This document shows, in pieces, positions 17,284-54,356 of a stretch of 64,000 nucleotides of DNA (position 1 is the first letter of the stretch; each line of letters begins with the position of its first letter). Origin of the DNA: Candidatus Cloacimonadales bacterium (lineage in GTDB: Bacteria > Cloacimonadota > Cloacimonadia > Cloacimonadales > JAFGVF01); contig OY782781.1 in assembly GCA_963678315.1 (NCBI GenBank), positions 2,400,001 to 2,464,000 on the forward strand. The letters are read 5' to 3'. The notes below the pieces were generated by a model, which saw only the letters and a program-made list of their open reading frames with translations, did not search any database and was not told the DNA's origin. Position numbers and translations under genes: made by a program.

Positions 17284-18016
17284 ATGACACCCAACTATTC
17301 CACCTGAAATACTGATTATATCATTTATTAAAGCTTTATTTATTAGATACTTACACGCTATTCCAAACGATGTCTCAAAATTTCCTCTTTAGCATAATTT
17401 ACAGACTATTATTACAAGTTCGATACCAGCTTTGGAGGATGTTTGAAGTAGTCTTTTTTGACTATATATTACTGCAAGTCTTTATGTTAGTAGCTAGTTG
17501 TACTTCTGAGTAAAAAAATAGAAAGAACCGATATCTCATATTTATCATGAGACACCGGTTTAAAATTGTTGATTTGATATAAAGTGACACCCAACTTTTC
17601 CATCTGCAAAAACGATTCATATATCTCATAAAGTCCCACACATTAGACTCTTACACCTATTTTCAATCGTTTTTTCAAAATTTCCATTTTAACTGCTTTC
17701 ACAGGAAACTTTATCGTTTGATTTATACTTTTAAAGTAGTTTTGTGGTTGTAAAGAACAGCATTAACAACCTTAAACGTCTAATAAATAAAGAGTTAACC
17801 TATTTTATAGTTTTAAGGCAATTGAAAAAATCGTTTTTACGCTTTTTTCTCACTGCAAAAACGATTCGGTTTCTCACATTTGATAAAAAAGCGTAAAAAC
17901 GATTTTGAAGAAGTGACAGAGTTTTTTCATTATTGATAAAAAACCGTAAAAACGATATTACTTGTTACTGAATACTCCACTTTTCAGATACTATAAAAAT
18001 GACACCATTATTTCCA
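17284..18016 (+). repeat. Left-end motif array (putative transposase binding sites)
   Basis: TGACACCCAACTATTCCA (17285), GTGACACCCAACTTTTCCA (17584), TGACACCATTATTTCCA (18000); repeated AAAAACGAT/ATCGTTTTT motifs incl. TTGATAAAAAA(G/C)CGTAAAAACGAT x2. Confidence 0.6.
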
Positions 18017-18123
18017 TTTCAAAACTACTATATATAATCTTTAGTTATATCATAAAAATGGAGCACTTTTGTAATTTTCATGAAATAATACGCTACTTAG
18101 TCATATTTTTTTTGTACTAGCTG

Positions 18124-19125
18124 TTAATAAGTATTGTTAAAATCCAAATCATCAATATCATAATCATATGAATTATTATGTGAACATATTTTTAGTTGCA
18201 TCGTTTCAAAGTTCTTTTTAATAATTTTTGATAATTCAGCTTGATCTTCTTCTAGGCTTTTCGTACCAAAAATAACAGAAGTTATTGTTCGAGGATTGAA
18301 TTCAATCAAATTACCTTCTTTATATTTAAGAACTCTAATCTCATCTTCTTCTTCCCAACATCTTTGCTTTGAAAAAAATATTTCTTTTATTGGGAAATCA
18401 AAGGAACCTTTCAAATAGGAAGTTTTAGGGAGTTCTTTAACATAATCGATTGGTAAAATTGGATAAAAGAAAAGAGGGTCTTCTAAGACATCAAATTCCA
18501 CACAAACACCTTTTGAGTTATCCCCATAATGAGCCCACATCTTTGTATTAGTTGGCGTTGTAGTAAAACAACTAGCTTTTGCAGAATCAACACTTTTACT
18601 TGCAGACTTTTGTAAAACATCTTTAAACCTAGACATAATAGACTTATCTGCATCGATTTGCACAGAGTTATTATATTTTGTTTCTAAATATTTCTTGTAA
18701 TTCATACTATCTTCTTCGGTAAAGCTTTCAGGAAAAGGTGATCTTCCTTCAAACTCATCATTAAATTTATCTAAATCTGAAAACCACATTTTCTTATTTT
18801 CAAACATTGCTAGTGTATAATCATTTATTGGCATATATTTATACAACTTATGAGGTATTATTTTATCATGCACCATTTTTAAAATAATAAACTCTTTATA
18901 GAAAAGCATAAAATCATCTAAAGACATATTTAGCTTCTTAGCTCTTTCTGCATTATTTTTTTCCCTCCCGATCATTTTAGCCTTTTCACTCCATTTAAAA
19001 AAATCTTCCATTTGTTCTTTAGGTATTCCTATTTTACTAAACACAGATTTATAGGTTTTGCCCATAGTTACACTAGATTTTAGTTCAATTAGCTTATCCA
19101 TATATTCGAAATATTCAATGTTCAT
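18124..19125 (-). CDS. DUF2971-domain protein, copy 1
   Basis: 'LYKY', 'FNDEFEG', 'CF...MWAHYGDNSKGVCVEFD', 'K..CWEEEDEIR'. Confidence 0.8.
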   Translation of the reverse strand: MNIEYFEYMDKLIELKSSVTMGKTYKSVFSKIGIPKEQMEDFFKWSEKAKMIGREKNNAERAKKLNMSLDDFMLFYKEFIILKMVHDKIIPHKLYKYMPINDYTLAMFENKKMWFSDLDKFNDEFEGRSPFPESFTEEDSMNYKKYLETKYNNSVQIDADKSIMSRFKDVLQKSASKSVDSAKASCFTTTPTNTKMWAHYGDNSKGVCVEFDVLEDPLFFYPILPIDYVKELPKTSYLKGSFDFPIKEIFFSKQRCWEEEDEIRVLKYKEGNLIEFNPRTITSVIFGTKSLEEDQAELSKIIKKNFETMQLKICSHNNSYDYDIDDLDFNNTY

Positions 19126-19138
19126 TATAAAGTTCTCC

Positions 19139-19513
19139 CTAAATTACCCTAAACAAGAAAACCATCTCACCTAAGATTCTGAATGTCTCAAGTTCAAAGT
19201 CTTCTATTATTATTACATCAAAATCAGGATTTAAAGGTTTAAGTATAACCCTCTTCTTTTCCTTATCGAATTGTAGTTTTTTGAGTGTGACACCCTCAGG
19301 AGTCTGACAAGCACTAATCTTACCATTTAGACTTGGAATATCAATAGACTCTTTTATTACTACTACATCTCCATGCATTATCTTTGGAGACATACTATTT
19401 CCATTAACTTTAAGAGCTATATACTTATTTTCTTGATCTGACAAATAAGCTTTTGGTATCTCTATATACTTTGATGGAGCATCATCATAACCATTCATTG
19501 GAGTACCAGCTGC
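19139..19513 (-). pseudogene. 3' fragment of phage repressor (S24 domain only) created by the duplication
   Basis: identical to 21075-21449; lacks HTH and native start. Confidence 0.85.
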
Positions 19514-20059
19514 TATAAAGTGACACCCAACTTTTCCATCTGCAAAAACGATTCATATATCTCATAAAGTCCCACACATTAGACTCTTACACCTATTTTC
19601 AATCGTTTTTTCAAAATTTCCATTTTAACTGCTTTCACAGGAAACTTTATCGTTTGATTTATACTTTTAAAGTAGTTTTGTGGTTGTAAAGAACAGCATT
19701 AACAACCTTAAACGTCTAATAAATAAAGAGTTAACCTATTTTATAGTTTTAAGGCAATTGAAAAAATCGTTTTTACGCTTTTTTCTCACTGCAAAAACGA
19801 TTCGGTTTCTCACATTTGATAAAAAAGCGTAAAAACGATTTTGAAGAAGTGACAGAGTTTTTTCATTATTGATAAAAAACCGTAAAAACGATATTACTTG
19901 TTACTGAATACTCCACTTTTCAGATACTATAAAAATGACACCATTATTTCCATTTCAAAACTACTATATATAATCTTTAGTTATATCATAAAAATGGAGC
20001 ACTTTTGTAATTTTCATGAAATAATACGCTACTTAGTCATATTTTTTTTGTACTAGCTG

Positions 20060-21061
20060 TTAATAAGTATTGTTAAAATCCAAATCATCAATATCATAAT
20101 CATATGAATTATTATGTGAACATATTTTTAGTTGCATCGTTTCAAAGTTCTTTTTAATAATTTTTGATAATTCAGCTTGATCTTCTTCTAGGCTTTTCGT
20201 ACCAAAAATAACAGAAGTTATTGTTCGAGGATTGAATTCAATCAAATTACCTTCTTTATATTTAAGAACTCTAATCTCATCTTCTTCTTCCCAACATCTT
20301 TGCTTTGAAAAAAATATTTCTTTTATTGGGAAATCAAAGGAACCTTTCAAATAGGAAGTTTTAGGGAGTTCTTTAACATAATCGATTGGTAAAATTGGAT
20401 AAAAGAAAAGAGGGTCTTCTAAGACATCAAATTCCACACAAACACCTTTTGAGTTATCCCCATAATGAGCCCACATCTTTGTATTAGTTGGCGTTGTAGT
20501 AAAACAACTAGCTTTTGCAGAATCAACACTTTTACTTGCAGACTTTTGTAAAACATCTTTAAACCTAGACATAATAGACTTATCTGCATCGATTTGCACA
20601 GAGTTATTATATTTTGTTTCTAAATATTTCTTGTAATTCATACTATCTTCTTCGGTAAAGCTTTCAGGAAAAGGTGATCTTCCTTCAAACTCATCATTAA
20701 ATTTATCTAAATCTGAAAACCACATTTTCTTATTTTCAAACATTGCTAGTGTATAATCATTTATTGGCATATATTTATACAACTTATGAGGTATTATTTT
20801 ATCATGCACCATTTTTAAAATAATAAACTCTTTATAGAAAAGCATAAAATCATCTAAAGACATATTTAGCTTCTTAGCTCTTTCTGCATTATTTTTTTCC
20901 CTCCCGATCATTTTAGCCTTTTCACTCCATTTAAAAAAATCTTCCATTTGTTCTTTAGGTATTCCTATTTTACTAAACACAGATTTATAGGTTTTGCCCA
21001 TAGTTACACTAGATTTTAGTTCAATTAGCTTATCCATATATTCGAAATATTCAATGTTCAT
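20060..21061 (-). CDS. DUF2971-domain protein, copy 2
   Basis: identical to copy 1; 13 nt downstream of repressor stop. Confidence 0.8.
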   Translation of the reverse strand: MNIEYFEYMDKLIELKSSVTMGKTYKSVFSKIGIPKEQMEDFFKWSEKAKMIGREKNNAERAKKLNMSLDDFMLFYKEFIILKMVHDKIIPHKLYKYMPINDYTLAMFENKKMWFSDLDKFNDEFEGRSPFPESFTEEDSMNYKKYLETKYNNSVQIDADKSIMSRFKDVLQKSASKSVDSAKASCFTTTPTNTKMWAHYGDNSKGVCVEFDVLEDPLFFYPILPIDYVKELPKTSYLKGSFDFPIKEIFFSKQRCWEEEDEIRVLKYKEGNLIEFNPRTITSVIFGTKSLEEDQAELSKIIKKNFETMQLKICSHNNSYDYDIDDLDFNNTY

Positions 21062-21074
21062 TATAAAGTTCTCC

Positions 21075-21803
21075 CTAAATTACCCTAAACAAGAAAACCA
21101 TCTCACCTAAGATTCTGAATGTCTCAAGTTCAAAGTCTTCTATTATTATTACATCAAAATCAGGATTTAAAGGTTTAAGTATAACCCTCTTCTTTTCCTT
21201 ATCGAATTGTAGTTTTTTGAGTGTGACACCCTCAGGAGTCTGACAAGCACTAATCTTACCATTTAGACTTGGAATATCAATAGACTCTTTTATTACTACT
21301 ACATCTCCATGCATTATCTTTGGAGACATACTATTTCCATTAACTTTAAGAGCTATATACTTATTTTCTTGATCTGACAAATAAGCTTTTGGTATCTCTA
21401 TATACTTTGATGGAGCATCATCATAACCATTCATTGGAGTACCAGCTGCAATCTCACCATATATAGGTAGAGTTATAACCCTTGAATCAAATGGGTTGAG
21501 TTTATGTTTATATACAGAGTTATTTCCTGTCATCTCTTCTATATTCTTTTTATGCCCATCCCCATACAGATTTCCATCTGAATCTAAAACAAACATTCCA
21601 CCTTTACCAGTTAATAACCAATTTAAGTTCAAACCATAGCGTTCGTTGATACGAGCCATGGCTGTTGCTGAAGGCTTACTAGTTTTTTTTCTGTTCAACC
21701 AATCTGATAGATTACCTGATGTTACTTCAATAGTATTCGCAAACTCGGAACGCTTTATATCAAGAGCATTTACGAACATTAACAGCCTATCTTTTATATC
21801 CAT
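21075..21803 (-). CDS. CI/LexA-like phage repressor (HTH + S24 peptidase)
   Basis: HTH 'SEFANTIEVTSGNLSDW', 'NWLLTGKG', cleavage site 'IAAG', 'GNSM', 'TLKK'; start set at 21803 from AGGAG RBS and the 242-aa paralogue. Confidence 0.9.
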   Translation of the reverse strand: MDIKDRLLMFVNALDIKRSEFANTIEVTSGNLSDWLNRKKTSKPSATAMARINERYGLNLNWLLTGKGGMFVLDSDGNLYGDGHKKNIEEMTGNNSVYKHKLNPFDSRVITLPIYGEIAAGTPMNGYDDAPSKYIEIPKAYLSDQENKYIALKVNGNSMSPKIMHGDVVVIKESIDIPSLNGKISACQTPEGVTLKKLQFDKEKKRVILKPLNPDFDVIIIEDFELETFRILGEMVFLFRVI

Positions 21804-21832
21804 TTGATCTCCTATTTTACATATCATTTCAT

Positions 21833-21945
21833 TTCGCATTGTTGCACACTGATGCGATGGACTGAAACTTTTCCTTGACTACTTTCGCATATTTTCGCTT
21901 TATAGATCTAGTAATCATTATTTGCAACATTGCGAACAATGTCAA
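21833..21945. promoter_or_regulatory. Repressor/Ner switch: leftward sigma70 promoter and inverted operator pair
   Basis: minus strand TTGACA-17nt-AATAAT (21945-21917); TTCGCATTGTTGCA (21833-46) is the near-perfect inverse of TGCAACATTGCGAA (21923-36); conserved in the relic at 57.2-57.35 kb. Confidence 0.6.
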
Positions 21946-21965: not shown

Positions 21966-22208
21966 ATGAGATCACCCTATAAACCTGCTGTAATAAGATC
22001 AGCTATGACGCTTAAAAGACTCACAACAAAGGCATTAGCCGAACGCTTATTCATCTCCAGAAGATCATTAGATTATTTTATTAATGAAGGAAGGCATATA
22101 AGAAAAGCAGAAGATGTCTTAGAAATTCTTCAACCTGAGCTTGATGAGATAAGTGAAATTTATCGCAAACATACTAACATAGAAGTCGAGAGTTGCGAAA
22201 AGAGGTAA
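21966..22208 (+). CDS. Ner/Cro-like small HTH regulator
   Basis: 80 aa, 'TTKALAERLFISRRSL'; divergent from repressor, ahead of transposase; AGGAGG RBS. Confidence 0.75.
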   Translation: MRSPYKPAVIRSAMTLKRLTTKALAERLFISRRSLDYFINEGRHIRKAEDVLEILQPELDEISEIYRKHTNIEVESCEKR

Positions 22209-24250
22209 TGATGGAATACAAAGAACTAACGGTTAACGATATTCAAAGAATGTTCTCGGTAAGTCAGGCTTCTGCATATAGAATGACTAAGACTTATAAA
22301 TGGGAGTTCGTTAACAAGCCTTTGAAAAAGGGTGGTAGAAAAAAACTTTATTTAGTACCAGTTAATTTAATTCCTACCAAAGAAAAACCTCTACCCTCTT
22401 TACCTAAAAGCAATAAACAGCCCTGTAAAGCAATATCTGAGGCTGTTAAAGCCGAGATAGTGGAGTATGACGATTCTATCAAAGACTTAGTACCAAGAAT
22501 TCAAGTTCCTGAAAGTGAGTTAATGAGAGCTCAGTTAAAAGCTGAACTTTGTGAGAGGATACTTTCTGAATATGAGAAGATAGGTGTAAAAAAACATGCT
22601 ATCGCAAATGTATTAGACGCTTATAATTCAGGATTGATACTACCTAAACTGTTCTTTATTGAAAGAACTAGAACAGAAAGGTCAATTCGTATGTGGCTTA
22701 AAGTATATGAAGAGAATGGTAGAGACTATAAGGTTCTTACTCGATTATCTAAAGCATCAAGTGTTAGGAAGGCAACTCTAAAGGAGCAAAACTTCTTACT
22801 GAATATATTGTTAGACGCAAACAAGATTAAGATTGGTACAGCTATTAGAAAGTTAAAGCAGTTTAGTAGACTAGGAGCTATTGAATCCCCAACCAGTAGT
22901 AGATCGCTTAGACGTTGGTGTGAAGAGTGGAGAGACAGCCACATTCAACAGTGGAATCTTCTTCGTATGGGCGAAAAATACTCTAAAGATACTTCCATAC
23001 TAAGCCTAAGCAGATCTGATGCTCTTAATGTTGGAGATGTTTGGGTTGCTGATGGACATAAGCTAGCCTTTGACATAATCGATCCAGATACAGGTAGACC
23101 AAAGAGAATGATGTTAATTCTATTCTTTGATTGGGCTAGTAGATATCCTGTTGGAGCATCAATAGCTAACACTGAGGACTCAGAGCATATACTTCTTGCT
23201 TTAAGGAATGGTATCCTTCATTGGAATGGAAGACCTAAGTATGTATATTTAGATAATGGTAGAGCATTTAAATCTAAATTGTTCCACCAAAAATGGGAAG
23301 AGCACAATTTTGAAGATGAGTTCTGTGGAGTGTTTCCTAGACTTAGCATAAAAGCTAAGTTTGCTAAAGCTTATAATGCTAGAGCTAAAGTTGTAGAGAG
23401 GTTCTTTAGAACATTCCAAGAAGACTTTGAACGCTTTATGGATACCTTTAGAGGTTCTGACATAGCTGACAAACCAGCCTTCTTAATGAGAAACGAGAAA
23501 TGGATTAAGAAACTTAAGAAACGTGAGCCTGTTACTATCGAGGAAGCTAAAATGATGATGTCATTCTACTTCCAAGAAATGTATGGTAAAACTCCACATG
23601 GAGGACTTGCAGGTCGTACTCCTCTTGAAGTGTTTAGAGCTAGTCAAGTACCTGAAGACAGAAAAATCGATGATTCAGAACTTAATTTCATGATGCTGAA
23701 GGTTGAAGAGAGAAAAGTTAGAGCTAATGGTGTTCAACTCTTTAACATTGTTTATTATCATGACTATTTAATGAATTATGTAGGTCAGAATGTTTCATTG
23801 AGGTATGACCTGATGGATATGCGTTCCGTCTTGGTTTATGACAAGAAGGGTAAGATAATATGCCAAGCACTTGCTAAGAAGAGTGTTCATCCATTTGTTA
23901 AGCTTGCTGAAAATGAGCCTATAGTTAAAAAGCAATGGCTTAAGCAACTAGCACATCAAAGAAAGCTTGAGAAAGATGTTAAAGAGAAATCAGCTGAACT
24001 ACAGAAGCAAGTGCAAGAGGCTGTATCAGACTTTGAATTACCAATTTTAGAAGTAACAAAAAGTGCCTTCAACGATTCAAGTATGTTAGAACATAAGGCT
24101 ACTGACAACCCTAGCCTAGACATAGATAAAATGGCTGAGAACACAGCTCGTTTAATTTCAAAAACAAAACAAGTACCACCTATAAAATCTATAGAAGAAC
24201 GTGGACTAGAAAATCTTGATAAAATGCTTAAACAGATAGGTATAGAATAG
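22208..24250 (+). CDS. MuA-like DDE transposase
   Basis: 'WVADGH', 'YLDNGRAF', 'AKVVERFF'; Mu C-terminal domain 'RKVRANGV..LRYD'; TAATG overlap with ner. Confidence 0.92.
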   Translation: MMEYKELTVNDIQRMFSVSQASAYRMTKTYKWEFVNKPLKKGGRKKLYLVPVNLIPTKEKPLPSLPKSNKQPCKAISEAVKAEIVEYDDSIKDLVPRIQVPESELMRAQLKAELCERILSEYEKIGVKKHAIANVLDAYNSGLILPKLFFIERTRTERSIRMWLKVYEENGRDYKVLTRLSKASSVRKATLKEQNFLLNILLDANKIKIGTAIRKLKQFSRLGAIESPTSSRSLRRWCEEWRDSHIQQWNLLRMGEKYSKDTSILSLSRSDALNVGDVWVADGHKLAFDIIDPDTGRPKRMMLILFFDWASRYPVGASIANTEDSEHILLALRNGILHWNGRPKYVYLDNGRAFKSKLFHQKWEEHNFEDEFCGVFPRLSIKAKFAKAYNARAKVVERFFRTFQEDFERFMDTFRGSDIADKPAFLMRNEKWIKKLKKREPVTIEEAKMMMSFYFQEMYGKTPHGGLAGRTPLEVFRASQVPEDRKIDDSELNFMMLKVEERKVRANGVQLFNIVYYHDYLMNYVGQNVSLRYDLMDMRSVLVYDKKGKIICQALAKKSVHPFVKLAENEPIVKKQWLKQLAHQRKLEKDVKEKSAELQKQVQEAVSDFELPILEVTKSAFNDSSMLEHKATDNPSLDIDKMAENTARLISKTKQVPPIKSIEERGLENLDKMLKQIGIE

Positions 24251-24259
24251 GAGATCAAC

Positions 24260-24973
24260 ATGCGAGAATATACCTTGGCAGAAACACAAAATGTAAAACA
24301 AGCAAAAGAACTTTTTAAGTACTTACTTAAGAGACCTAAGACTGAGATGGTTGGGTTAGGACTTATCTATGGTCCTCCAGGACTTGGTAAAAGTAGATTT
24401 GCAAGGCAAACAGCCATTAAAAACAACTATATTTACTTCAGATTAGAAGCAACTATGACAGCTAAGAGCTTTTCAGTTAAACTTCTTGAGAGAATATACT
24501 TCCACTTCGGTATGCCAAGAATAGGTATTAGAGGGAGTGCAAATGATATCTTCCAAAGATGCTTTGAGATATTAAAGAACTTCGATAATACTGTTATAGT
24601 CATAGATGAGATAGATTATGCTTTTAAGAACAAGAGAATCCTTGGTAGTATTCGTGATATAGTAGACCAAACACTATCAGTTGTTGTGCTTGTTGGTATG
24701 GCTGATGCTAAAGAAAGTTTACTCTCTGCAGATGCTCACTACTTTGACAGATGCAACTTCTTCTGCCAATTTAAACCACTAGATGTTAAAGATTTAACAC
24801 TTTTATGTAAAGAAGTGTGTGAAGTTAAGATTGATGATATAGTAATTAAACATATTGCCAAGAGGACTAGTGGTAACATTAGGAAATTCATTAAATCATT
24901 GTACTCTCTTGAGAACTTAGCTCAAACACATGATTTAACAATTATCAAGCCTCAGCATTTAGATATGATGTGA
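24260..24973 (+). CDS. MuB-like AAA+ transposition ATPase
   Basis: Walker A GPPGLGKS, Walker B IVIDEID, 'LVGM', 'GNIR'. Confidence 0.9.
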   Translation: MREYTLAETQNVKQAKELFKYLLKRPKTEMVGLGLIYGPPGLGKSRFARQTAIKNNYIYFRLEATMTAKSFSVKLLERIYFHFGMPRIGIRGSANDIFQRCFEILKNFDNTVIVIDEIDYAFKNKRILGSIRDIVDQTLSVVVLVGMADAKESLLSADAHYFDRCNFFCQFKPLDVKDLTLLCKEVCEVKIDDIVIKHIAKRTSGNIRKFIKSLYSLENLAQTHDLTIIKPQHLDMM

Positions 24974-24980: not shown

Positions 24981-25466
24981 ATGCAGACTACTAACTACAA
25001 AATAATCAGAAATTTCGTGGAGTTTTATGGAAAGCCTTTCACTGGTGACGTTGTTGCTGGTGAAACTGGTATTCCAATCCAAAAGACCATTAGAGTGTTA
25101 AACACAATGAGTTATAAAGGATTAATCAAATCTATATCCATGCAAGGTAAGTTCGCTATTTATATTAAGAATAGCGACTATGTTGATAAAAATCCCATGA
25201 ACAGTTTCAATTTCGAAATCAAATTCCTAAAAGCTATAATCAGAAAGTTAAAAACAGAAGAAGTTAAAAGTGCAAGACACTTAGCAGACCTACTTAAGTG
25301 TGGAAGGAGACGTGTCACAAGATACTTAGTAGCTCTCTGTTCAATAGGTATGGTTGGCTTAGTAGATAAGAAATACAAAGTAATTAAGGATATGGACCTA
25401 CTACTTGTAGGTAGTAGATATGACAGCCAAATCCTAAAGAAACTCAAAGCTAAAAACAAACAGTAA
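24981..25466 (+). CDS. Phage protein, probable tandem winged-HTH
   Basis: basic 161 aa; 'SARHLADLLKCGRRRVTRYL' HTH-like. Confidence 0.5.
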   Translation: MQTTNYKIIRNFVEFYGKPFTGDVVAGETGIPIQKTIRVLNTMSYKGLIKSISMQGKFAIYIKNSDYVDKNPMNSFNFEIKFLKAIIRKLKTEEVKSARHLADLLKCGRRRVTRYLVALCSIGMVGLVDKKYKVIKDMDLLLVGSRYDSQILKKLKAKNKQ

Positions 25467-26080: not shown

Positions 26081-26214
26081 TTTTTTCTTAGAGCAAAGTA
26101 TTAACTCCAAATTTAGGGAGTGTTTCTCTTTGCCTAAATTTCTGTGGTAACTGTAGGCATGGAGGTTTGACCTTGCCTCATAGCCATTATATATATGTCC
26201 TAGGAGATATAAAT

Positions 26215-30682: not shown

Positions 30683-30691
30683 ATAAAGCTC

Positions 30692-31177: not shown

Positions 31178-31179
31178 TA

Positions 31180-42722: not shown

Positions 42723-42731
42723 GAGGTTGGA

Positions 42732-44468: not shown

Positions 44469-44477
44469 GAGTAAAAC

Positions 44478-44678: not shown

Positions 44679-44683
44679 AGGTA

Positions 44684-45232: not shown

Positions 45233-45241
45233 GGAACAATC

Positions 45242-45430: not shown

Positions 45431-45432
45431 TA

Positions 45433-45756: not shown

Positions 45757-45881
45757 AAAGACTAGAAATGGCTCTAAGAAGTGTTGGATTTTCTCAAAGT
45801 GATTTTGTTGAGATGACACTACCAGAGCTATACTTACGATACTGCATTCAAGTAGAAAACATAAGGAAAAATAATGGATAG
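45663..45881 (+). CDS. -1 frameshift extension (GT-like) of tail chaperone
   Basis: -1 frame opens right after TAA 45660-62, at the T run; 'FVEMTLPEL' motif. Confidence 0.55.
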   Translation, partial: FFLFYEKQLEEVTAIARRFGIKGSGRNTENLERLEMALRSVGFSQSDFVEMTLPELYLRYCIQVENIRKNNG

Positions 45882-46614
45882 TATAATTGCTTGGGTTGGA
45901 GGTAAACGCCTTCTAAGAAAGAAAATAGAGACACTTATTCCTCAAGATATGAGAGGATATATTGAACCCTTTGGTGGTGCTGGATGGGTACTATTCCACA
46001 AGGAGAAATGGGCAAAGCTTGAAGTCTATAATGATTTAGACAGACGCTTAACAAACCTATTTCTGCAAGTGAAGTTTCACCCTGAAGCACTAATAGAAGA
46101 GTTCGATTATATGATTGGTTCTAGAGATATCTTTAAAGAGATAAAGAACAATCCTGGACTGACAGAACTTCAAAAAGCAGCTAGGTTTATGTTCTTAATT
46201 TCTAGAAGTTTTGGTAGTAAAGGTGACTCTTTTGCTACAGCAAGAAGCCAAGGACATGCAAAACTTACGAACAAACTAAATAGAATAAAAGATTTAAACA
46301 AAAGACTTGATGGTGTTATAGTAGAGAACCTTAGCTATGATGAGTTAATTCCAAAGTATGATACTAAGGACAACTTCTTCTATTGCGACCCACCCTATAT
46401 GATTGGCTTTAAATATGATAATGCTAAGCGCTTTGATCATCAAAAGCTCTTTAATATTCTATCAAACATCAAAGGTAGGTTCTTACTATCTTATGATGAT
46501 TGCCAGCAAGCAAGAGAACTCTATAAAGATTATACGATAGAGTCTGTTAGCAGAGTTAAAGGTATTAATCGTATGAGTGTATATATTACATATCTTTTGT
46601 CAAATATAATTTAA
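45874..46614 (+). CDS. DNA adenine methyltransferase (D12/Dam family), C-terminus probably truncated
   Basis: 'WVGGK', 'YIEPFGGAG', 'VYND', 'CDPPY', 'FLLSYDD'; usual terminal E-h-h-I-x-N-Y motif absent. Confidence 0.85.
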   Translation: MDSIIAWVGGKRLLRKKIETLIPQDMRGYIEPFGGAGWVLFHKEKWAKLEVYNDLDRRLTNLFLQVKFHPEALIEEFDYMIGSRDIFKEIKNNPGLTELQKAARFMFLISRSFGSKGDSFATARSQGHAKLTNKLNRIKDLNKRLDGVIVENLSYDELIPKYDTKDNFFYCDPPYMIGFKYDNAKRFDHQKLFNILSNIKGRFLLSYDDCQQARELYKDYTIESVSRVKGINRMSVYITYLLSNII

Positions 46615-46806
46615 CCAATGTCCTATTAAATATCCGAAGTGGACTTAGATATATTATCTAATAAACTCAACGTCATTGAAATAAGTAAAGATAAGATCGT
46701 TATATATCATTAATCAATAGACATTTTGCTATTAATTAGTAACTCTTAAAGGTTTTATTCCGATACGTGTTACAAGTACTTCTCATTAGACTCAAACTCT
46801 GCAATA

Positions 46807-49194
46807 CTATTTTATCAAAAGAATCTTCTTCATGTCTGTAATATTGCCACTTCTAATCTTATAGAAATATACACCACTTGAACTATTTTTATTTGCATTA
46901 TTAGTGCCATTCCAGACAATTTCATGAACACCTTGATTAAGATTATCATTTAAAAGATTCTTTACTAACTGCCCTCTAACATTGTAGATATCAACTGTTA
47001 CTTTTCCAGGTTTAGGAATGTTAAACTGAATTGTTGTTTCTGGATTAAATGGGTTTGGATAATTAAAAGCATTTAGTTCTGAAGAAGGTAGTTCAACATT
47101 GTCATTACCTGTATAGCCTGGTGATTCAAAGCATCCTATATCAATATTTTCACCAAACATTCTAGCATTACCATATAAATCCAACTCTGGCAATTGATAC
47201 CCTTCATTAGCATATTGGCTATCCATAATTCCACCATCTATCGCGGGTGAGAAACCATTCTCGTCATCTGCAAACAAGCGATAATGCTCTTTTGTCGCTG
47301 GGTCTGTCCCAGCAAAAAGCGGATCCTGTCCAAGGATATTACCTTCATCAACTAGCATATCAGAACTATCCCATACACAGAAAATATTATCATTTTCATT
47401 TTTAGTAAAAAGATTATTTTCTAAATAGAGATCGTGACTATAACCCATATCTCTGGACTGGTTGTTAGCAAATATTGAGTTTCTTACTGATGCATTTCCA
47501 TCAAACATAACTGAGTTATCAAATTCATGATAATTATTTGCTACAGTACAATTTGAAAAGTATATTTCACTTCCCAACAGGTTTAACATCTTTGTACCAC
47601 CTAAACTACTATTATTGGCAAATAGACAATTATCCATAATAATTGTGGTTTGTGCACCTGCGTTAAACTGAACAACCCTTGCTAACGAGAAACCAGGTTC
47701 TGATTCACATACATTGTTAACAAAAGTGCTGTTTTTTATTATAGCTGTTCCAGTATCATTAGTAATGTCTAAAGCACCGTTTGATCTATAAATCCAATCA
47801 TCATTAGGGTCATTATAACAATCTTGAATTGTCAAATTATCAATTACAATATCTTCTCCCCATAATCTTAATCCATACTCAGAGTATAATGCATGAATAT
47901 TTCTTAGGGTAACATCTTCAATTCTCATAGTTGCATCAGGTCCTGAAATGTAGAAATTACTAAATTCTATAACACTATCTTCTATTACAACATTCTTAAT
48001 TAAACAATCATATACTCTCCATGCAAAAAAGCTATTAGCCATGTTAGTAGTTATAGAAAGGTCACAAACTGTAGGGCTGTGACTTGTATTCATAAACCCT
48101 ATTGCTGCATAACCGTAAAACATATTCTCTGCATAAATCTTCGTTTGAGATGGAGATAGACCTTTCAATATAGTATATTCTTTAACAGATATTGGAAGAT
48201 ATTCTCCCTGAATATAATTGTGATGTTCCCCTGCCAAGAGATGTACGGTATTAGGGTTTGATGGATTTGACATAATCCTCTGCATTGCTAAAGAGGGCGT
48301 TTTCAGTGCAGAGTTTGGAGATAAACCACTATTGTTATCATTTCCAACTGGAGAAACATATAAATCACAATCAACTTCCTCTAGATACGCCTCTTCGACA
48401 TCAAAGACCTCATAAGGAGAAGATTCTGGGATATTATCTTCATCTCTTTCATACCAATCAGCAAAATATCTATCATAACCCGATTTAGTGAATTTATTTA
48501 AGTAAATTTCTCCATCAAAATCATGTGTACTACTCCAATAAATATCCATCCCCCAATTAGCAAAGTTGTTGTAAATGCTACATCTATTATTTTGAGAGAA
48601 AGTTACTCCATAAGCTTCATCAAGCTTGCCTAAAATTAATAATCCTCCCCCTCTCCATCTTGCAATGTTGTCGTATATATTCACGTTTTCAAGTGTTACG
48701 GTAGAAGAATAGGCAATAGCTACCCCTCCTCCTCCACTTGCTCTATTATTGTAAATGTTCAAGTTCCTTAAATCAAGAGAACAATGCATATATATATATA
48801 TGCCCCCACCAAGCACATTATGTGGCTGACCGTCGAACACATATCCTGTCCCTCCTGTTATAGATAACCCCTGAATGGTGCATGTACTTGTGTTTTCATG
48901 GCAACTTATCGTTGCACCAATATTATTACTGCCATCAATAACAGTTGATGAGATATATTCTTCATTGCCTGTCAAAATTTCTAATGATGCTAAAGTCAAA
49001 CCACTTAGTCCTGTTAATTCCAAATTTTCATGATAATGCCCTGGATAAACCAATATAGTATCACCAAACACTGCTTGATTAAGTGCAGTTTGTATCTCAG
49101 TATAAGGTTTTGTTCCATCTAAACTTACTTCTAACATAGCAGTAAGTTTAAGTGTAACAAAAATTATTAATAATACAGCAAAATATTTTTTCAT
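46807..49194 (-). CDS. Secreted parallel beta-helix (DUF1565/pectin-lyase-like) protein with FlgD-Ig CTD
   Basis: 'YTEIQTAL..GDTILVYPG.Y.EN', 'LYVSPVGNDNNSG', 'DIGCFE', 'NYPNPFNPETTI'. Confidence 0.8.
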   Translation of the reverse strand: MKKYFAVLLIIFVTLKLTAMLEVSLDGTKPYTEIQTALNQAVFGDTILVYPGHYHENLELTGLSGLTLASLEILTGNEEYISSTVIDGSNNIGATISCHENTSTCTIQGLSITGGTGYVFDGQPHNVLGGGIYIYMHCSLDLRNLNIYNNRASGGGGVAIAYSSTVTLENVNIYDNIARWRGGGLLILGKLDEAYGVTFSQNNRCSIYNNFANWGMDIYWSSTHDFDGEIYLNKFTKSGYDRYFADWYERDEDNIPESSPYEVFDVEEAYLEEVDCDLYVSPVGNDNNSGLSPNSALKTPSLAMQRIMSNPSNPNTVHLLAGEHHNYIQGEYLPISVKEYTILKGLSPSQTKIYAENMFYGYAAIGFMNTSHSPTVCDLSITTNMANSFFAWRVYDCLIKNVVIEDSVIEFSNFYISGPDATMRIEDVTLRNIHALYSEYGLRLWGEDIVIDNLTIQDCYNDPNDDWIYRSNGALDITNDTGTAIIKNSTFVNNVCESEPGFSLARVVQFNAGAQTTIIMDNCLFANNSSLGGTKMLNLLGSEIYFSNCTVANNYHEFDNSVMFDGNASVRNSIFANNQSRDMGYSHDLYLENNLFTKNENDNIFCVWDSSDMLVDEGNILGQDPLFAGTDPATKEHYRLFADDENGFSPAIDGGIMDSQYANEGYQLPELDLYGNARMFGENIDIGCFESPGYTGNDNVELPSSELNAFNYPNPFNPETTIQFNIPKPGKVTVDIYNVRGQLVKNLLNDNLNQGVHEIVWNGTNNANKNSSSGVYFYKIRSGNITDMKKILLIK

Positions 49195-49269
49195 AGTTTC
49201 CCCTCTCCTAAATATATTTAGGGCTAACCTAATAGGCTAGCCCACAATTATTAATTATACATTAAAATT

Positions 49270-51765
49270 CTATTTCATTAGGACCATTTTCTTAGTTACT
49301 ATAGAATGAAGTGTTTTAATTCTAGTGAAATAAACTCCAGAAGCAACAGATTGTCCATAATTATTTTTTCCCTTCCAAACGATACTATGAACACCAGCTA
49401 TAAGTTCTTCATTAACAAGTGTTTTTACTAATTGACCTTTAATGTTATATATCGCTAGATTAACCATGCTATTCTTTGGATTATTAAAACTAATCGTAGT
49501 TTCTGGATTGAATGGATTTGGATAATTATTTATGGTTAAATGATTTATTACGGGAACATTAATGTCTGATTCTTGGTTATCTTGACCGAAGATAAGTCTA
49601 TAATAATCATTGCCACCCTTAACAATTCTGTTAACAGGTACAAACTCATTTGTAACCTCATTAAATAGATTAAACCCAACTTTTAAACTACTTCTGTCAC
49701 TACTCCAAGCTCTGATTTCCATCTCTGTAGCATCTTCTAACTCTATTATATATCCTGGAATCATTACTAAATCATTATCTACTACAACGGCTCCTTTACA
49801 TATATCATCAGCAAATACTGCAATTTCTTTTATCCCTAAAGTTGTATCAACTTCAACAAATATTGGGGTATACTCTGCTTCTGGAGTATATTGATAATAA
49901 GTAGTTGCTTTAGTGCTATAGTTTCTTGCTGGCGAGATATGATGCCATTTAAATGACTCGTCATCTGGGTCACTTGATGAAAACCTTTTTATAGATACCA
50001 TATCCCCATAACTGATACTAGGTAAAACTCCACCGATTCCCATTGGAATAACCCATGGTGAGCCTCTTTTAGGTCGTTCTCTAGTTATAGTCCAATCTTT
50101 ATGCTGAATATAGTATAGTTCATCCATATAGTCTCCAAACGCATCTGCAGGAGTTTGTGTTGCAGGAACAAAATAACCAACCCAAGTTGCTTCATCTGAA
50201 TATGTAACTTCAATTTCATCATCTAAATCAACATGGTACCCATGAAATCTATTCATTGTATCATTTTGATTGAACCTTAGTTTATATCCCCTATGAGATT
50301 TAATATCAATTGTATTACTCAAATATCCAGGATAAAATGTACCATCAAATAAGTAACTACCATTATCTACTTGTGCTTTAAATCTTAACAATGGACTAGT
50401 CATAGGATCATCATATTCAGCAAAGAAATTTGACATTATTGCATTTGATTGTGGAATATTATCAATTACAGGGAATGAAACCCAGTTGTAATCAATTCCG
50501 CTTGTAAATGAATATGTTGCGAATCTATCAAGATCATACTGAACAGCACCAATGTCATTTGTTAAATCAGATATATCGCAAGTAGAATTGCCCTCACCTT
50601 TACCAATGAGAGAAGATCCAGCTTGCAAATTAAAGTCATCGTTTGCTACATCCTCAAACATAGGCTGTGTTGTTGCAATATTGTCTAAACCTTGTAATCC
50701 AGTTGGTATGGAAGAGGCATATATACAGCAATTTGTATAAGTTGAAGAAGAAGTAATAGGGTTTCTTATGATACTATCTTTGAACTCCAAAGACATATTT
50801 TGTGGATAAAAATCATCCTGTGTTGAATCCTGTAAGAGATTACAATGGTTTAGCTTAATTTCCCAATCACTATTTGATGCATAGATAGAATTTCCGTAAA
50901 TCTCATCGTTAGTTCTACAATCGTTATTATAGAAGATTGTATTATTGAACTCTACAGTAGAATTGCCTGAGTTACCACCTGAAATTGCAACACCAGCTCC
51001 ATATGTAGATGTAACCATAGGACCAGAAGATAGTATTAATGTTTCGTTATCTTTAATAATACAATTATTTATTTTAATCAAGTTACTGGTATTAGAGCTA
51101 GTAGACCCACCAATTTTTATACCTGCTCCCTCATAATTCTTTCCATCTTGAATAGTTAAATTCTCGATAGTGATGTTGTAAGAATTGTAGATATTAATTA
51201 CCGGAGATTCATAAACACCCATAATAATTGTATCTGAAAAGTCGTTACCTCTTATTGTAAGATTTATTTTATTTTCAATATTTATTGCACCTGTATATTC
51301 ACCAGGTTGTATATAAATAATATCCCCACTAACTGCACTATCTACTTCTTGTTGAAGCTGATTAGGGCCAAAGCCTCCTGGATATTGATTAATATTATAT
51401 ATACCTATGTCACTTAAAGTTTGTCCATTTGCAACAAGTTCAATATAAACAACACCAGATCTTATCTCAGTTGTATTATTTTCATCAACACTAATTATTA
51501 CATCATAGCAACTTCCGTATAGATTGGTGTAATTATTGTTTGAATCACACCAATTGATATCATAACTCGAATAAGATGACTCACCAGCTATTAAATTTTG
51601 TCCTGTACTAATAGGTGTATCTAAATAAATCGTTACTGATAAAGTGTTTGAATCACTTCTTAGCCAATAAGGACTTCCATCCTCAATATTAATAATTTCA
51701 CTTGCTGAGTACAAATAGAGTAAATGTGTTAGTAATAATAGACTGATAAATAGAACTTTCTTCAT
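49270..51765 (-). CDS. Secreted beta-helix protein with FlgD-Ig CTD
   Basis: signal peptide, 'GDIIYIQPGEY', 'DIGA', 'YNWVSFP', 'NYPNPFNPETTI'. Confidence 0.8.
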   Translation of the reverse strand: MKKVLFISLLLLTHLLYLYSASEIINIEDGSPYWLRSDSNTLSVTIYLDTPISTGQNLIAGESSYSSYDINWCDSNNNYTNLYGSCYDVIISVDENNTTEIRSGVVYIELVANGQTLSDIGIYNINQYPGGFGPNQLQQEVDSAVSGDIIYIQPGEYTGAINIENKINLTIRGNDFSDTIIMGVYESPVINIYNSYNITIENLTIQDGKNYEGAGIKIGGSTSSNTSNLIKINNCIIKDNETLILSSGPMVTSTYGAGVAISGGNSGNSTVEFNNTIFYNNDCRTNDEIYGNSIYASNSDWEIKLNHCNLLQDSTQDDFYPQNMSLEFKDSIIRNPITSSSTYTNCCIYASSIPTGLQGLDNIATTQPMFEDVANDDFNLQAGSSLIGKGEGNSTCDISDLTNDIGAVQYDLDRFATYSFTSGIDYNWVSFPVIDNIPQSNAIMSNFFAEYDDPMTSPLLRFKAQVDNGSYLFDGTFYPGYLSNTIDIKSHRGYKLRFNQNDTMNRFHGYHVDLDDEIEVTYSDEATWVGYFVPATQTPADAFGDYMDELYYIQHKDWTITRERPKRGSPWVIPMGIGGVLPSISYGDMVSIKRFSSSDPDDESFKWHHISPARNYSTKATTYYQYTPEAEYTPIFVEVDTTLGIKEIAVFADDICKGAVVVDNDLVMIPGYIIELEDATEMEIRAWSSDRSSLKVGFNLFNEVTNEFVPVNRIVKGGNDYYRLIFGQDNQESDINVPVINHLTINNYPNPFNPETTISFNNPKNSMVNLAIYNIKGQLVKTLVNEELIAGVHSIVWKGKNNYGQSVASGVYFTRIKTLHSIVTKKMVLMK

Positions 51766-51870
51766 AATTTCTCCTTTTTGTTTAATTTTGTAAATATTCT
51801 TTTTTCTTTTCTACGATGAATATTGTATCATCTGCAAGAACGACTGTATCATCAACTGAAATTATAGTTC

Positions 51871-52086
51871 CTAATTGTTTTCGACTACATGGTAATAAGA
51901 TCCATCAATCTCGACAACTAGGATATTTTCTTCTTCGTCATGAAATATTACATTGAACCCTTTTGAATTAAGAGCTGTTAGTTGAGCAGTTGAAATTTTA
52001 GGCAACAAGCTATATTCTTCTTGACAATAGACATTACAAGCTATAATTAGTAGAATAATTAGAATCAAAAATCTATTTTGTTTCAT
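51871..52086 (-). CDS. Small exported protein
   Basis: 71 aa with signal peptide; AGGAGG RBS. Confidence 0.65.
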   Translation of the reverse strand: MKQNRFLILIILLIIACNVYCQEEYSLLPKISTAQLTALNSKGFNVIFHDEEENILVVEIDGSYYHVVENN

Positions 52087-52181
52087 TTTTCCTCCTATAT
52101 AAAAGAGAAAAAAGTAATAGATTTTCTTCTAAGTGGTTGCTAAATTATTGGTATATATTATGATAAAGGTACAACAGTTAT

Positions 52182-53135
52182 ATGGATATAGACTATGATA
52201 ATGTTTTAAAGATATGTAGGGAAATAGGATTTAGATATTTAAATAATCAAGACGAAGTTCAAGAAGTTTCACAACTTGTTGCAATAGATTTATTCAATAA
52301 TCTGGATAAAATCAATCCTGAAAGAATTAATGGCTGGCTGTTCACCGTTACAAAACATAAGTGCTTTGCAATAATAAAAAGTAAGAAAAACTCCAAAGAA
52401 GTACTTACAGATACCTCTTTCTTCAATAAGTTATGTAGTGCTAAGGAGATGAAAGAAGATACATCTGAAGATGAACTCGATTTATATAAATATGACTTCA
52501 TTTCTACTCAGAACAAAGCTATATTAGACCGATATTACCATGAACACCACTCAATTGAAGCTCTTGCAAGAGCCTACAAAATTAAAGCTAAAACGTTGAA
52601 ACAGAGAATCTATAAAATAGAGCAAGAGATAAAACTCTTTCATCTAGTAAATAGTAATAAATTAGCCTTCGATTCATTACCATCTACTAAATTAAACAAC
52701 AATTTACTCAATTTTCTTAGAAAACTAAAAACGGCTTTAGAATCAAATAAGTTGCAAGAGATGACTACTTACCTTGAAGACTGTATTATACATGATTCAA
52801 TAAACAAAATTAACATGATGAAATTTAGAACTAGCAAAATTAGAATTATAGGTCCAAATAAATATAAATTTCTGGTGACTTATATTAATGAGAAGCAACA
52901 ACCTAGATTCTTTTTTATTGCTTTTGAATTAAGAGGAAAGAATGGTATTCATATCACTGAATTACCTATTTTCCCTAAAGAAGTCTCATTGATAGAGGTT
53001 TCAGAAAAATCCAAAAAGCTGAAATCTAAGGATCTTGCTGGGGAAAAAGGGTGGTACAATCAAAAATTAGGAAGCACAGAAGATTTAAGAAGAGAAGGTC
53101 GGCTTGAATTGATCCAAAAAGGGGAAGATATCTAG
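52182..53135 (+). CDS. ECF-like sigma factor with long C-terminal extension
   Basis: region 2-like 'YLNNQDEVQEVSQ..GWLFTVTKH', region 4-like HTH 'SIEALARAYKIKAKTLKQRI'; roughly 160 extra aa. Confidence 0.65.
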   Translation: MDIDYDNVLKICREIGFRYLNNQDEVQEVSQLVAIDLFNNLDKINPERINGWLFTVTKHKCFAIIKSKKNSKEVLTDTSFFNKLCSAKEMKEDTSEDELDLYKYDFISTQNKAILDRYYHEHHSIEALARAYKIKAKTLKQRIYKIEQEIKLFHLVNSNKLAFDSLPSTKLNNNLLNFLRKLKTALESNKLQEMTTYLEDCIIHDSINKINMMKFRTSKIRIIGPNKYKFLVTYINEKQQPRFFFIAFELRGKNGIHITELPIFPKEVSLIEVSEKSKKLKSKDLAGEKGWYNQKLGSTEDLRREGRLELIQKGEDI

Positions 53136-53378
53136 TTCAATTTTGAACAGAATCAACTATAGTTTTCTTAGTAGAAATCAGCTTTTAAAAGCAAAAGTTC
53201 TATTGCTATAAACTTGACTCATAAATATTAAGTACTCTCACATAATCTATAGTATTTTCTACCTATATTCAATCATAAATAATTATGATAATCAAAATAT
53301 TGCACTTAATGTTAACGCATATATGCTGAAATTTAGCAAAGACAAACCCATCATTTAATACCTGATGGGCTTTATTAT

Positions 53379-53747
53379 TTACCATGTTCTTACCTTGTAA
53401 GTTATGTCATTATACTCAAATTGCTCTAAATCAATCTTAGCTTTTATAGCTACTCTTTCAAATAACTGACCTAGTTCATCACGTTCACCAGTCTCAATAA
53501 AAGCCTGACTTGTCATACTATCAAGGGCATTAAACTCGATAACAGCCTTTTCGATTAGTTCAATTTTAATCTCTTGTTTAGCTCTTAAACCAGCCTTTGC
53601 TAAATCTTCAAGTAAAGTATCCATAATTTTAACAGCTAGATCACAGTTAATTTTACTGTATTGTTTTAAACCTCTTTTATAATATGTTCTCCACTCTTCA
53701 AATGGGTATCCTGCTTTTAACTGTTCTAATCTTTCTTTATAAGTCAT
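53379..53747 (-). CDS. Hypothetical protein
   Basis: 122-aa ORF with AGGAG RBS and downstream hairpin; 'IETGERDEL' motif. Confidence 0.7.
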   Translation of the reverse strand: MTYKERLEQLKAGYPFEEWRTYYKRGLKQYSKINCDLAVKIMDTLLEDLAKAGLRAKQEIKIELIEKAVIEFNALDSMTSQAFIETGERDELGQLFERVAIKAKIDLEQFEYNDITYKVRTW

Positions 53748-54026
53748 CGTTAACTCCTTTTAGTTCATTAATTTATGTCTCTACATTATAACTTTAATGA
53801 AAGAAGTCAAGTCAAATAAGCACTATTTTATGTATTTATCTCACTATTTTGCAGTATGTTACAGGTGCATTTTAATAGAATAATATAACAAATTGAACTT
53901 AGTAAAAACAGCATATGGTAGGGAGTCGAAAATTATAACTAAAATTATGAGTCAAACAGTTCAGAGCGAGGAATATCGCATAAGTGATTATTTAATAAAC
54001 AGTTATGTTAAACATTAAAGTAATTC

Positions 54027-54356
54027 TGGAAATTGTGACATCACTTATTCCTTTTTACTCTTCTGGAAAATATCTTGTCACAAATTATCAAGGTATATTT
54101 TTGCTAACTGTTTAATTATTAGTACTTTATAAAATGGAAATTATGCTGACCCCCAAAGGACAGCTATTTTTCCTTAATAAGCTAAATCATAGGTAATATG
54201 GAAAATATTATGTCATATTTGCTTTTATTAGATTATTAGTCATAAGTCATTATTTTATAAATAGTTATGGAGACATGTAGTACAGTTTTGTGGGGGGTAG
54301 TGGAAATTACGCTGACCTCAAATGGCAAAAACGGGTGTCACTTCTTATTTGAGACA
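54027..54356 (-). repeat. Right-end motif array (inverse of left-end motif)
   Basis: TGGAAAATATCTTGTCAC, TGGAAAATATTATGTCAT, TGGCAAAAACGGGTGTCAC, TGGAAATTA(T/C)GCTGACC x2. Confidence 0.6.

Follow-up and report, generated by a model that had tools for sequence, protein, structure and literature searches.

A probable Mu-like prophage lineage of Cloacimonadota combining Mu-family terminase and MuF genes with a portal and capsid of another type

Results

The element and its ends

We have analyzed a stretch of 64,000 nucleotides (the window, bases 2,400,001-2,464,000 of the closed 2.99-Mb genome of a Candidatus Cloacimonadales bacterium) that contains a single Mu-type transposable element at positions 17578-54347. 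We consider it probable that this element is the prophage of a temperate, Mu-like lineage of siphovirus type, specific to Cloacimonadota, and that the copy in the window is now a non-infectious derivative. What sets the lineage apart is an apparent non-orthologous replacement inside the head module, with a Mu-family terminase and MuF protein working beside a portal, a protease and a capsid of another type. The order of the family is TerS-TerL-MuF, cargo island, endolysin, three small genes, portal and a protease::capsid fusion.

The element measures 36,770 bp and lies between two copies of a 5-bp target-site duplication, TTTGA, at 17573-17577 and 54348-54352. Its left terminus (17578-17617, plus strand) begins TATAAAGTGACACCC and the right one (54308-54347, plus strand) finishes GGGTGTCACTTCTTA. 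They are imperfect inverted repeats: when the left end is compared with the reverse complement of the right, 24 of the 40 outer positions agree, and the agreement is strongest outermost (13 of the first 15 positions). The first 15 nt of the left terminus are kept in a second copy in this genome (copy 2, C1:2157457-2190500) and in the relatives. Copy 2 has the same termini and a duplication of its own, GTATC. Two related closed genomes contain three more prophages with these termini; they span 30.5, 31.5 and 34.5 kb, and their flanks read ATTGA, AGTAA and TCTAT. Thus five elements, inserted at five sites and each flanked by a 5-bp duplication of its own, share their termini, which indicates Mu-type transposition into unrelated sites. 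The preliminary description of this stretch had drawn the element from 17578 to 54356; its start is the exact left terminus, and its end has to be moved back to 54347. One contig of run X5 tracks the window to 54347 and diverges exactly past the right terminus, a weak independent pointer to that boundary.

Packaging genes and the position of the portal

The small terminase subunit TerS (26794-27255, plus strand) and the large subunit TerL (27248-28792, plus strand; phrog_38, E 7e-59) are followed by a stand-alone MuF-domain head protein of 292 aa (28789-29667, plus strand; PF04233, 30.5 bits against a cut-off of 29.6; phrog_241, E 9e-11). The MuF gene overlaps the stop of TerL by 4 nt, leaving no room for a portal between them. 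The only portal starts 11.9 kb past MuF, after three small open reading frames (ORFs; 40283-41540), at 41541-42722 on the plus strand, and belongs to the Phage_portal family and not to Portal_Mu (PF04860, 56.6 bits against 39.1, E 3e-15; phrog_12). All this agrees with what had been described before: a terminase followed by MuF with no portal in between, and a portal about 12 kb on, after three small genes and beside an XkdF-like protease. The three genes are there as announced, and the label "neck-like" given to them is plausible, if unproven.

The same arrangement recurs in other genomes. Scanning IMG/VR with the 578-aa protein encoded after the portal gave 135 relatives among 209 candidate stretches, and the order in all 80 loci retained was three small genes, portal, fusion protein. 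All 30 genome loci with at least 3.5 kb of upstream sequence have the portal, and 29 of them the complete set of three small genes. A second IMG/VR scan, with TerL, led to 13 fetched loci; the downstream side was visible in 11, and MuF came directly after TerL in all of them. Eight loci (L097, L099, L100, L103-L106 and L108) carry TerL-MuF with endolysin or portal-side genes further on, and one contig of 36,143 bp (L096 + L020) holds the repressor, MuA (49% identity), TerL, MuF, island, portal block, capsid and tape measure. Loci L105 and L106 have no island, and there MuF is followed by the endolysin, the three small genes and the portal, so that the 12-kb distance is cargo and not architecture; the earlier view of this gap as a trait of the layout has to be given up in favor of a variable cargo island. 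In the three prophages of the related genus about 0.8-0.9 kb separate TerL from MuF, and this spacer holds, in one of them, a 197-aa ORF without Pfam match that is too small for a portal. The collinearity of copy 2 with the window starts at the left end, takes in the cargo island and stops at residue 212 of the portal, at 84-87% DNA identity.

Relatives and hosts

Compared with 50,697 deposited phage records, the TerL of the window showed identities of 21-26%, and among the matches listed were RcapMu, SuMu, Hankyphage-type phages of Bacteroides, phages of Porphyromonas gingivalis and Mu-like phages of Ralstonia; RcapMu, SuMu and the Hankyphage-type and P. gingivalis phages are matched over most of TerL. 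By its sequence, this TerL is predicted to belong with those of transposable phages. The portal matched only three unrelated records of the same set, and the fusion protein matched deposited phages through its protease domain alone. No close relative was found among these 50,697 records, in which identities reached at most 33%, too low for membership of a described genus to be at issue.

A third, distant Mu-like prophage of the same genome (around C1:1518-1553 kb; 25% identity in MuA and 31% in TerL) serves as an internal control. Right after its TerL comes an 832-aa protein in which Portal_Mu (E 3e-55) is fused to MuF (E 2.5e-16) and to a nuclease-like tail. This prophage (L121, L122, L165) appears complete, with a 925-aa MuA, MuB, DUF3164, a ClpP-type protease, a separate capsid, an M15 endolysin, Dam and a tape measure; the opposite strand carries an adaptor, Neck1, TerS, TerL and the Portal_Mu::MuF::nuclease-like fusion, a layout that resembles that of Hankyphage. 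Its homologue of s182, a small protein encoded past the capsid gene (see below), is 39% identical to the one in the window.

A search of 5.8 billion proteins returned 199 proteins at E values up to 0.001. Labels of Cloacimonadota type are carried by 33 of the 40 loci from species-representative genomes; the remaining seven, probably binning errors, are on contigs of 1-12.7 kb that were binned with other phyla or are labelled only "uncultured bacterium". The preliminary description, which had placed the element in a poorly studied host phylum and in a lineage of transposable phages outside the Mu layout, is borne out on both points: record titles identify the phylum as Cloacimonadota, and the lineage differs also from the Hankyphage-type and P. 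gingivalis phages, in which the portal follows TerL. Our literature search, confined to the main text of freely accessible papers, found no description of transposable phages in Cloacimonadota, and the available portion of a paper on Cloacimonetes and prophages (PMC9377139) contains neither "transpos" nor "Mu-like".

A protease, a coiled coil and a capsid in one polypeptide

Directly after the portal, at 42732-44468 on the plus strand, a 578-aa protein joins an XkdF-type serine protease (residues about 1-170), a three-helix coiled coil (about 170-257) and a major capsid domain of HK97 fold (about 257-578). The N-terminus was assigned to the XkdF family by PF14550 (E 1.8e-27, 96 bits against a cut-off of 24). 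The capsid domain matches no Pfam family, and the profile of the whole protein gave no meaningful match to sequences of the PDB (the best, at E 0.006, fell on the coiled coil); the assignment of the capsid domain comes from structure. An AlphaFold model (m815c702dfb78; 18-sequence alignment, mean pLDDT 63) shows an alpha/beta N-terminal domain, three long helices (173-253) and an alpha/beta C-terminal domain. Foldseek searches of the PDB retrieved capsid proteins at probability 1.00, including P2/P4 gpN (E 2e-7) and those of the capsid-forming phage-inducible chromosomal island (cf-PICI) EcCI2, the Rhodobacter gene transfer agent and HK97, as well as encapsulins. In VIA-align the best match was P2/P4 gpN, with Z 13.0 and 255 residues aligned at a root-mean-square deviation of 6.0 over model residues 300-578; capsid matches in general fell on residues 257-578 or so, and designed three-helix bundles on 170-257. 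The matches of the model in BFVD were XkdF-type proteases and HK97-family capsids.

The model thus describes a single polypeptide made up of protease, scaffold-like coiled coil and capsid, a polyprotein that would process itself. The fusion is kept across 18 homologues (41-89% identity), and PF14550 is found in all of the 120 database relatives listed except two truncated ones. As for the "PBSX-type head" of the preliminary description, the protease domain of XkdF family is what remains of it, and the capsid is of a generic HK97 fold closest to P2/P4 gpN.

The three small genes before the portal (40283-41540, plus strand), present in all 80 IMG/VR loci, code for soluble proteins of 141, 154 and 124 aa that are probably head-tail connector proteins. 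The lead comes from a language-model search, in which the 154-aa protein lay near HK97-gp10-like clusters (score 0.96-0.98). None of the three matches a family in Pfam or PHROG. Pfam searches with 30 homologues of the small structural proteins gave nothing above noise, the best being Phage_tail_terminator at E 0.043 for one homologue of the 124-aa protein, and a fold model of the 154-aa protein was unusable (pLDDT 46). The endolysin precedes these genes in the relatives, and we considered a holin or spanin role for them; we discarded it, there being no hydrophobic segment in any of the three.

Behind the fusion gene, at 44478-45756 on the plus strand, lie four small genes: s66, s182 (possibly the tail tube), s62, with one C-terminal hydrophobic helix, and s107. 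Three of them (s182, s62 and s107) follow the capsid gene in 54-67 of the 80 IMG/VR loci and s66 in only 5; s182 is placed near a tail-tube family by the language-model search (score 0.93), again a lead. The last phage gene ahead of the replaced stretch is a Dam-type N6-adenine DNA methyltransferase (45874-46614, plus strand; PF02086, E 7e-27).

Tail and lysis genes are replaced in the window copy

Past the capsid, the relatives carry Dam and then a second Dam gene, between which some of them have an S-adenosylmethionine synthetase gene (L017:13906-14865). The tape measure follows, with 880-1,000 aa, and before the right end is reached there are further proteins, of about 480, 150 and 220-280 aa. 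An endolysin of lysozyme or M15 type directly precedes the first small gene in 79 of the 80 IMG/VR loci, the exception starting at a contig edge. Where at least 5 kb of downstream sequence is available, 41 of the 42 IMG/VR loci have the tape measure; among genome loci it was seen in 22 of 26. In the window, tblastn searches with the proteins of the relatives found no homologue of the endolysin, the tape measure or the distal tail proteins, and the second methylase is missing as well. At the place of the tail genes there is a non-phage cassette (46807-53135) with two large proteins bearing sorting domains of the type IX secretion system (T9SS), of 795 aa (46807-49194) and 831 aa (49270-51765), a 71-aa ORF (51871-52086), all three on the minus strand, and a sigma-70-region-2-like protein on the plus strand (52182-53135).

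Short-read contigs cover this replacement. One of 11,668 bp (run X1, perhaps from the source sample) covers 41958-53625 and another of 6,892 bp (runs X2 and X3, one sample of another study) covers 46500-53391, both with zero differences, so the junction between Dam and the cassette is not an assembly error; short-read contigs also bridge 53789-56846. Runs X2 and X3 have almost no cover over 54425-56275, and we draw nothing from that gap; two short-read joints with sides of 20-23 letters and one joint with a 39-letter insert were set aside as likely repeat artefacts.

Other elements have undergone comparable replacements. In copy 2 everything from residue 212 of the portal to the first two thirds of the approximately 480-aa tail protein has given way to a sigma-like gene, two ORFs and a 1,483-aa T9SS protein. 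In a third fragment (C1:2192-2206 kb) the connector-like genes continue into a transposase of an insertion sequence (IS), T9SS proteins and a right end. In 3 of the 26 genome loci, from other Cloacimonadales, the tape-measure region is replaced (L123:12673-18352, L125:4783-6294 and L126:15490-19125), the newcomers being glycosyltransferase and GH130 genes, a B12/radical-SAM enzyme and a 1,211-aa CARDB protein. Since the window copy and copy 2 each have the same target duplication at both ends, the foreign genes sit inside single transposition units. From its gene content, the window copy is predicted to be defective, unable to make tailed particles or to lyse the cell alone; it should still be repressible and would possibly be able to transpose.

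Early region and left end

The early block is as first described, with a repressor, Ner, MuA, MuB, DUF3164 and a GemA-like gene each in its place, Ner being recognizable by position only and GemA weakly. A CI/LexA-type repressor with a helix-turn-helix (HTH) and an S24 peptidase (21075-21839, minus strand; Peptidase_S24, E 1.5e-21; Phage_CI_repr, E 2e-7; phrog_4) is divergent from the early operon. The operon opens with the Ner-like ORF of 80 aa (21966-22208), named from its position alone; it matches no family in Pfam or PHROG and is kept at the same position in the relatives with 34-62% identity. Then come a 685-aa MuA-type DDE transposase (22193-24250; Mu-transpos_C, E 1e-18; phrog_310, E 1e-85; rve, E 1e-6, below cut-off), whose best match among deposited phages is 27% identical over 80% of its length, and a MuB-type AAA+ transposition ATPase (24260-24973; matches to AAA_22 and TniB; phrog_296, E 6e-28). 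They are followed by a winged-HTH protein (24981-25466), DUF3164 (25481-26080; E 4e-55), an HTH_17 protein (26167-26427) and the weak GemA-like ORF (26430-26813; E 0.009), all from the Ner-like ORF onwards on the plus strand.

The left end itself is duplicated. Positions 17578-19513 and 19514-21449 form a tandem repeat of 1,936 bp with 99.9% identity. The first unit comprises the left end, a PDC-S31/DUF2971 gene (18124-19125, minus strand; PADLOC PDC-S31, E 3e-41) and the 3' part of the repressor (19139-19498, minus strand). The second left terminus and a second PDC-S31 gene (20060-21061, minus strand) occupy 19514-21061. A defence candidate thus adjoins the left end, and its two copies result from the duplication. 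At the junction the middle of a repressor gene abuts exactly the left terminus of the element, and the duplication looks like the outcome expected of one copy landing in a resident copy's repressor gene, followed by recombination between them.

Other traces of related elements are found close by. A lone left-end-like sequence (4 mismatches in 24) at 17278-17301, 300 bp outside the element and beside a tRNA cluster, may be the trace of an older insertion. The cluster has six tRNA genes on the minus strand (16311-17059; three Met, His and two Arg) directly left of the prophage. To the right, a remnant of a third related element at 56354-57800 shows a left-end-like sequence at 56354, a Ner-like gene and a terminal hairpin. 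Its repressor (56475-57203) is intact, with 242 aa and 97% identity to the main repressor, and its MuA is reduced to about 50 codons with stops. A 58-nt palindromic, terminator-like repeat appears at two distant sites, 3765-3822 and 57737-57794 (90% complementary).

Cargo

The island after MuF (29672-39649) lies on the minus strand. The earlier account had neither this island and its IS nor the tail cassette, the duplicated left end or the lack of tail and lysis genes. It starts with a Mrr-type nuclease (29672-30682) and a two-gene defence candidate, PDC-M18 (E 4e-86 and 6e-39), formed by PDC-M18B (30692-31177) and PDC-M18A (31180-32220). An IS follows (32348-34022, transposase at 32422-33882), with seven copies in the genome at identities of at least 99%; in the island of copy 2 its site is empty. 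The rest is taken up by a 1,534-aa S8 subtilase with a T9SS sorting domain (34065-38669) and a 318-aa T9SS protein (38693-39649), a pair that recurs in 4 of the 80 loci. At this same site the relatives carry type I restriction-modification systems, a SocA/Panacea protein and other T9SS proteins. The gap after MuF has become a hotspot for defence genes, restriction-modification systems and T9SS-secreted proteins.

The components of the tail cassette are also found elsewhere in the host: a sigma-70-region-2-like gene with large T9SS-sorted proteins recurs at several sites inside and outside Mu-like elements (for example C1:821700-828000), with protein identities of 28-35%, and the genome has about 100 paralogues with T9SS sorting domains. 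Between the cassette and the right terminus, a 122-aa accessory gene (53379-53747, minus strand) also stands beside two other right ends in the genome; five IMG/VR records gave no match to it, an empty answer that carries no weight there.

Discussion

The genes retained in the window, together with those of the relatives, suggest how the intact phage most probably works. A LexA-like self-cleaving CI repressor would keep the early operon off, judging by the gene set. After derepression, the Ner-like protein, MuA and MuB would drive replicative transposition of an element with ends TATAAAGTGACA...TGTCACTTTATA, leaving 5-bp target duplications. The Mu-family TerS and TerL and the stand-alone MuF would then package the DNA into proheads assembled on the non-Mu PF04860 portal, with a shell made from one polyprotein that unites protease, coiled-coil scaffold and HK97-fold capsid and presumably trims away its N-terminal half. 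Three connector-like proteins, a tube-like protein, the tape measure and a few distal tail proteins would complete the virion, to be released by the endolysin. As to origin, the lineage would have retained TerS, TerL and the MuF domain while the portal, protease and capsid of Mu type disappeared, and a foreign block with the connector-like genes, the PF04860 portal and the protease::capsid would have come in downstream. Such a module swap is the simplest reading of the odd order; the direction of the swap, the route of induction and the roles of the small proteins we infer.

Several observations weigh against seeing the window element simply as the decayed prophage of such a phage. None of the retained phage ORFs is truncated, and in an old wreck that is unusual; perhaps the loss happened recently, or else the form without a tail is being maintained. 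Tail replacements recur (in copy 2, in the third fragment and in 3 of 26 genome loci), a pattern that simple random decay does not predict. IMG/VR favors complete-looking viruses, and the counts of 41 of 42 for the tape measure and 79 of 80 for the endolysin overstate the frequency of intact copies. Five related IMG/VR records are rated only 51-71% complete by CheckV, although relatives of 30.5-31.5 kb bounded by target duplications argue that such records are whole. As for gene identities, GemA stays below threshold (17 bits against a cut-off of 27), Pfam and PHROG scans of 38 ORFs gave no homologue of Mor/C, and for the three small proteins and s182 the only pointers to a role are language-model leads.

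An alternative is that the tail-less, lysin-less form is a functional transposable satellite or cargo carrier. It would replicate by transposition, form and fill its own capsids and, as capsid-forming PICIs do, take tails and lysis from an intact relative in the same cell, so spreading T9SS and other cargo. We find it unlikely, although transposition, packaging, portal, capsid and connector-like ORFs are all intact and several independent elements have exchanged their tail genes for cargo between intact ends. The window element and copy 2 are each bracketed by their own 5-bp duplication, and the left-end duplication at the repressor resembles the footprint of a self-insertion, implying past transposition. 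However, the replacements vary in extent and content, and copy 2 has also lost half of the portal and the capsid gene, which decay explains better; no two tail-less copies have their deletion boundaries in common. Tube-like and chaperone-like genes, for which a tail thief has no use, are also still present in the window copy. The genome does contain a complete Mu-like prophage that has both a tape measure and an endolysin, and its s182 homologue is 39% identical, but this sole candidate helper is distant (31% identity in TerL, 25% in MuA), making compatibility between neck and tail doubtful. The X5 contig, which contains pieces of the cassette and departs at the right terminus, would fit a cassette-bearing form elsewhere, yet it is one contig of low depth. 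The broader proposal, that Mu-like prophages of Cloacimonadota repeatedly become transposable, capsid-forming, tail-less carriers of T9SS enzymes, glycan genes and defence, seems to us improbable to a similar degree. If true, ends, transposase, terminase, portal and capsid would persist in them, and they would be a transposon-based counterpart of the capsid-forming PICIs, spreading by transposition and with tails borrowed from intact relatives.

A domesticated gene transfer agent, PBSX-like or of another type, that serves the host by packaging its DNA is far less probable still. The idea, which the preliminary description had left as an alternative, draws on the XkdF-family protease and on a capsid fold that also matches the Rhodobacter gene transfer agent capsid (among many others); besides, the headful packaging of Mu takes along some flanking host DNA. 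Against it, the element has its own repressor, transposase and terminal repeats, and occurs at differing sites with target duplications and in several copies per genome, as a selfish mobile phage would and a vertically fixed locus would not. It has no tail or lysis genes, and its IMG/VR relatives resemble ordinary complete temperate phages. Least credible of all, and rejected here, is that unrelated elements, a Mu-like remnant and a separate head-gene cassette, were joined by misassembly or lie together by chance. Host-like T9SS genes and an IS do separate the two phage blocks, and other Mu-like remnants are nearby (17278 and 56354-57800). Nevertheless copy 2 repeats the order with the island included, TerL-MuF and the portal block share contigs in the eight IMG/VR loci named above and in three prophages of closed genomes bounded by target duplications, short-read contigs bridge 41958-53625 and 53789-56846, and matching 5-bp duplications bracket the whole span.

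Taken as a Mu-like prophage lineage with an exchanged head block, the element is relevant to the question of how closely terminase, MuF and portal have to co-evolve, and the Portal_Mu::MuF prophage in the same genome provides the control. The lineage is a widespread group of transposable phages whose hosts, the Cloacimonadota, form an uncultured phylum that abounds in anaerobic digesters. The joining of protease, scaffold and capsid in a single polypeptide would be a compact assembly system. The two cargo hotspots of the family, after MuF and in the tail region, carry defence candidates and T9SS-secreted proteins, and phages of this family may carry part of the secreted-enzyme repertoire of their hosts. 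What a specialist would note are the mismatch between terminase/MuF and portal, the polyprotein capsid and the recurrent exchange of tail genes for cargo; we regard them as noteworthy rather than revolutionary, given the well-known mosaicism of phage head and tail modules.

Comparison with known systems

The element shares with Mu and with B3/D3112-type phages a CI-type repressor divergent from a Ner-like/A/B operon, DUF3164, a MuA with Mu-transpos_C and MuB. Terminal inverted repeats, a 5-bp target duplication, a size of about 30-37 kb, a TerL of transposable type and a MuF-domain protein are also as in Mu-type phages. For Mu itself we follow the textbook account of its head-gene order and TG termini. 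In contrast to Mu, the lineage has no Portal_Mu/DUF935 portal between TerL and MuF, a PF04860 portal being located downstream; its XkdF-type protease is fused to scaffold and capsid, connector-like genes stand upstream of the portal, the Dam genes of the family lie between tail-chaperone-like genes and the tape measure, no Mor/C was seen, and the termini start with TA instead of TG.

PBSX of Bacillus subtilis, a non-replicating, defective, myovirus-like particle that packages host DNA, has in common with the element the XkdF-family protease domain (PF14550). Here, unlike in PBSX, the protease is fused to the capsid, and the capsid domain matches HK97-fold capsids generally; the portal falls in the broad PF04860 family. 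The multiple copies bounded by target duplications argue that the element, unlike PBSX, moves its own genome. With the cf-PICIs the window copy shares packaging, portal, capsid and connectors without a tail, and the capsid of EcCI2 ranked third in Foldseek and scored Z 9.5 in VIA-align. Unlike them, it has no PICI-type integrase, Stl-like control or primase-replicase and would move by MuA/MuB transposition, and the tail-less state is a property of individual copies and not of the family.

The Hankyphage-type and P. gingivalis phages resemble the lineage in having hosts of the same superphylum, transposition, a siphovirus-type tail with tape measure, DUF3164, a TerL about 24-26% identical over 64-75% of its length, and lysis genes among the structural genes. 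In those phages TerS, TerL, an adaptor, a DUF935 portal and a minor head protein lie on one strand and a separate protease and capsid on the other, whereas the lineage of the window no longer has a Mu-type portal and has everything on a single strand. The candidate family proposed for them is given bounding repeats of 4 bp in the available part of its description (PMC10367356), against 5 bp here. The synteny of transposable phages has been called remarkably conserved, in the available portion of PMC8705779; compared with it, the lineage described here separates TerL from the portal and uses a portal of another family.

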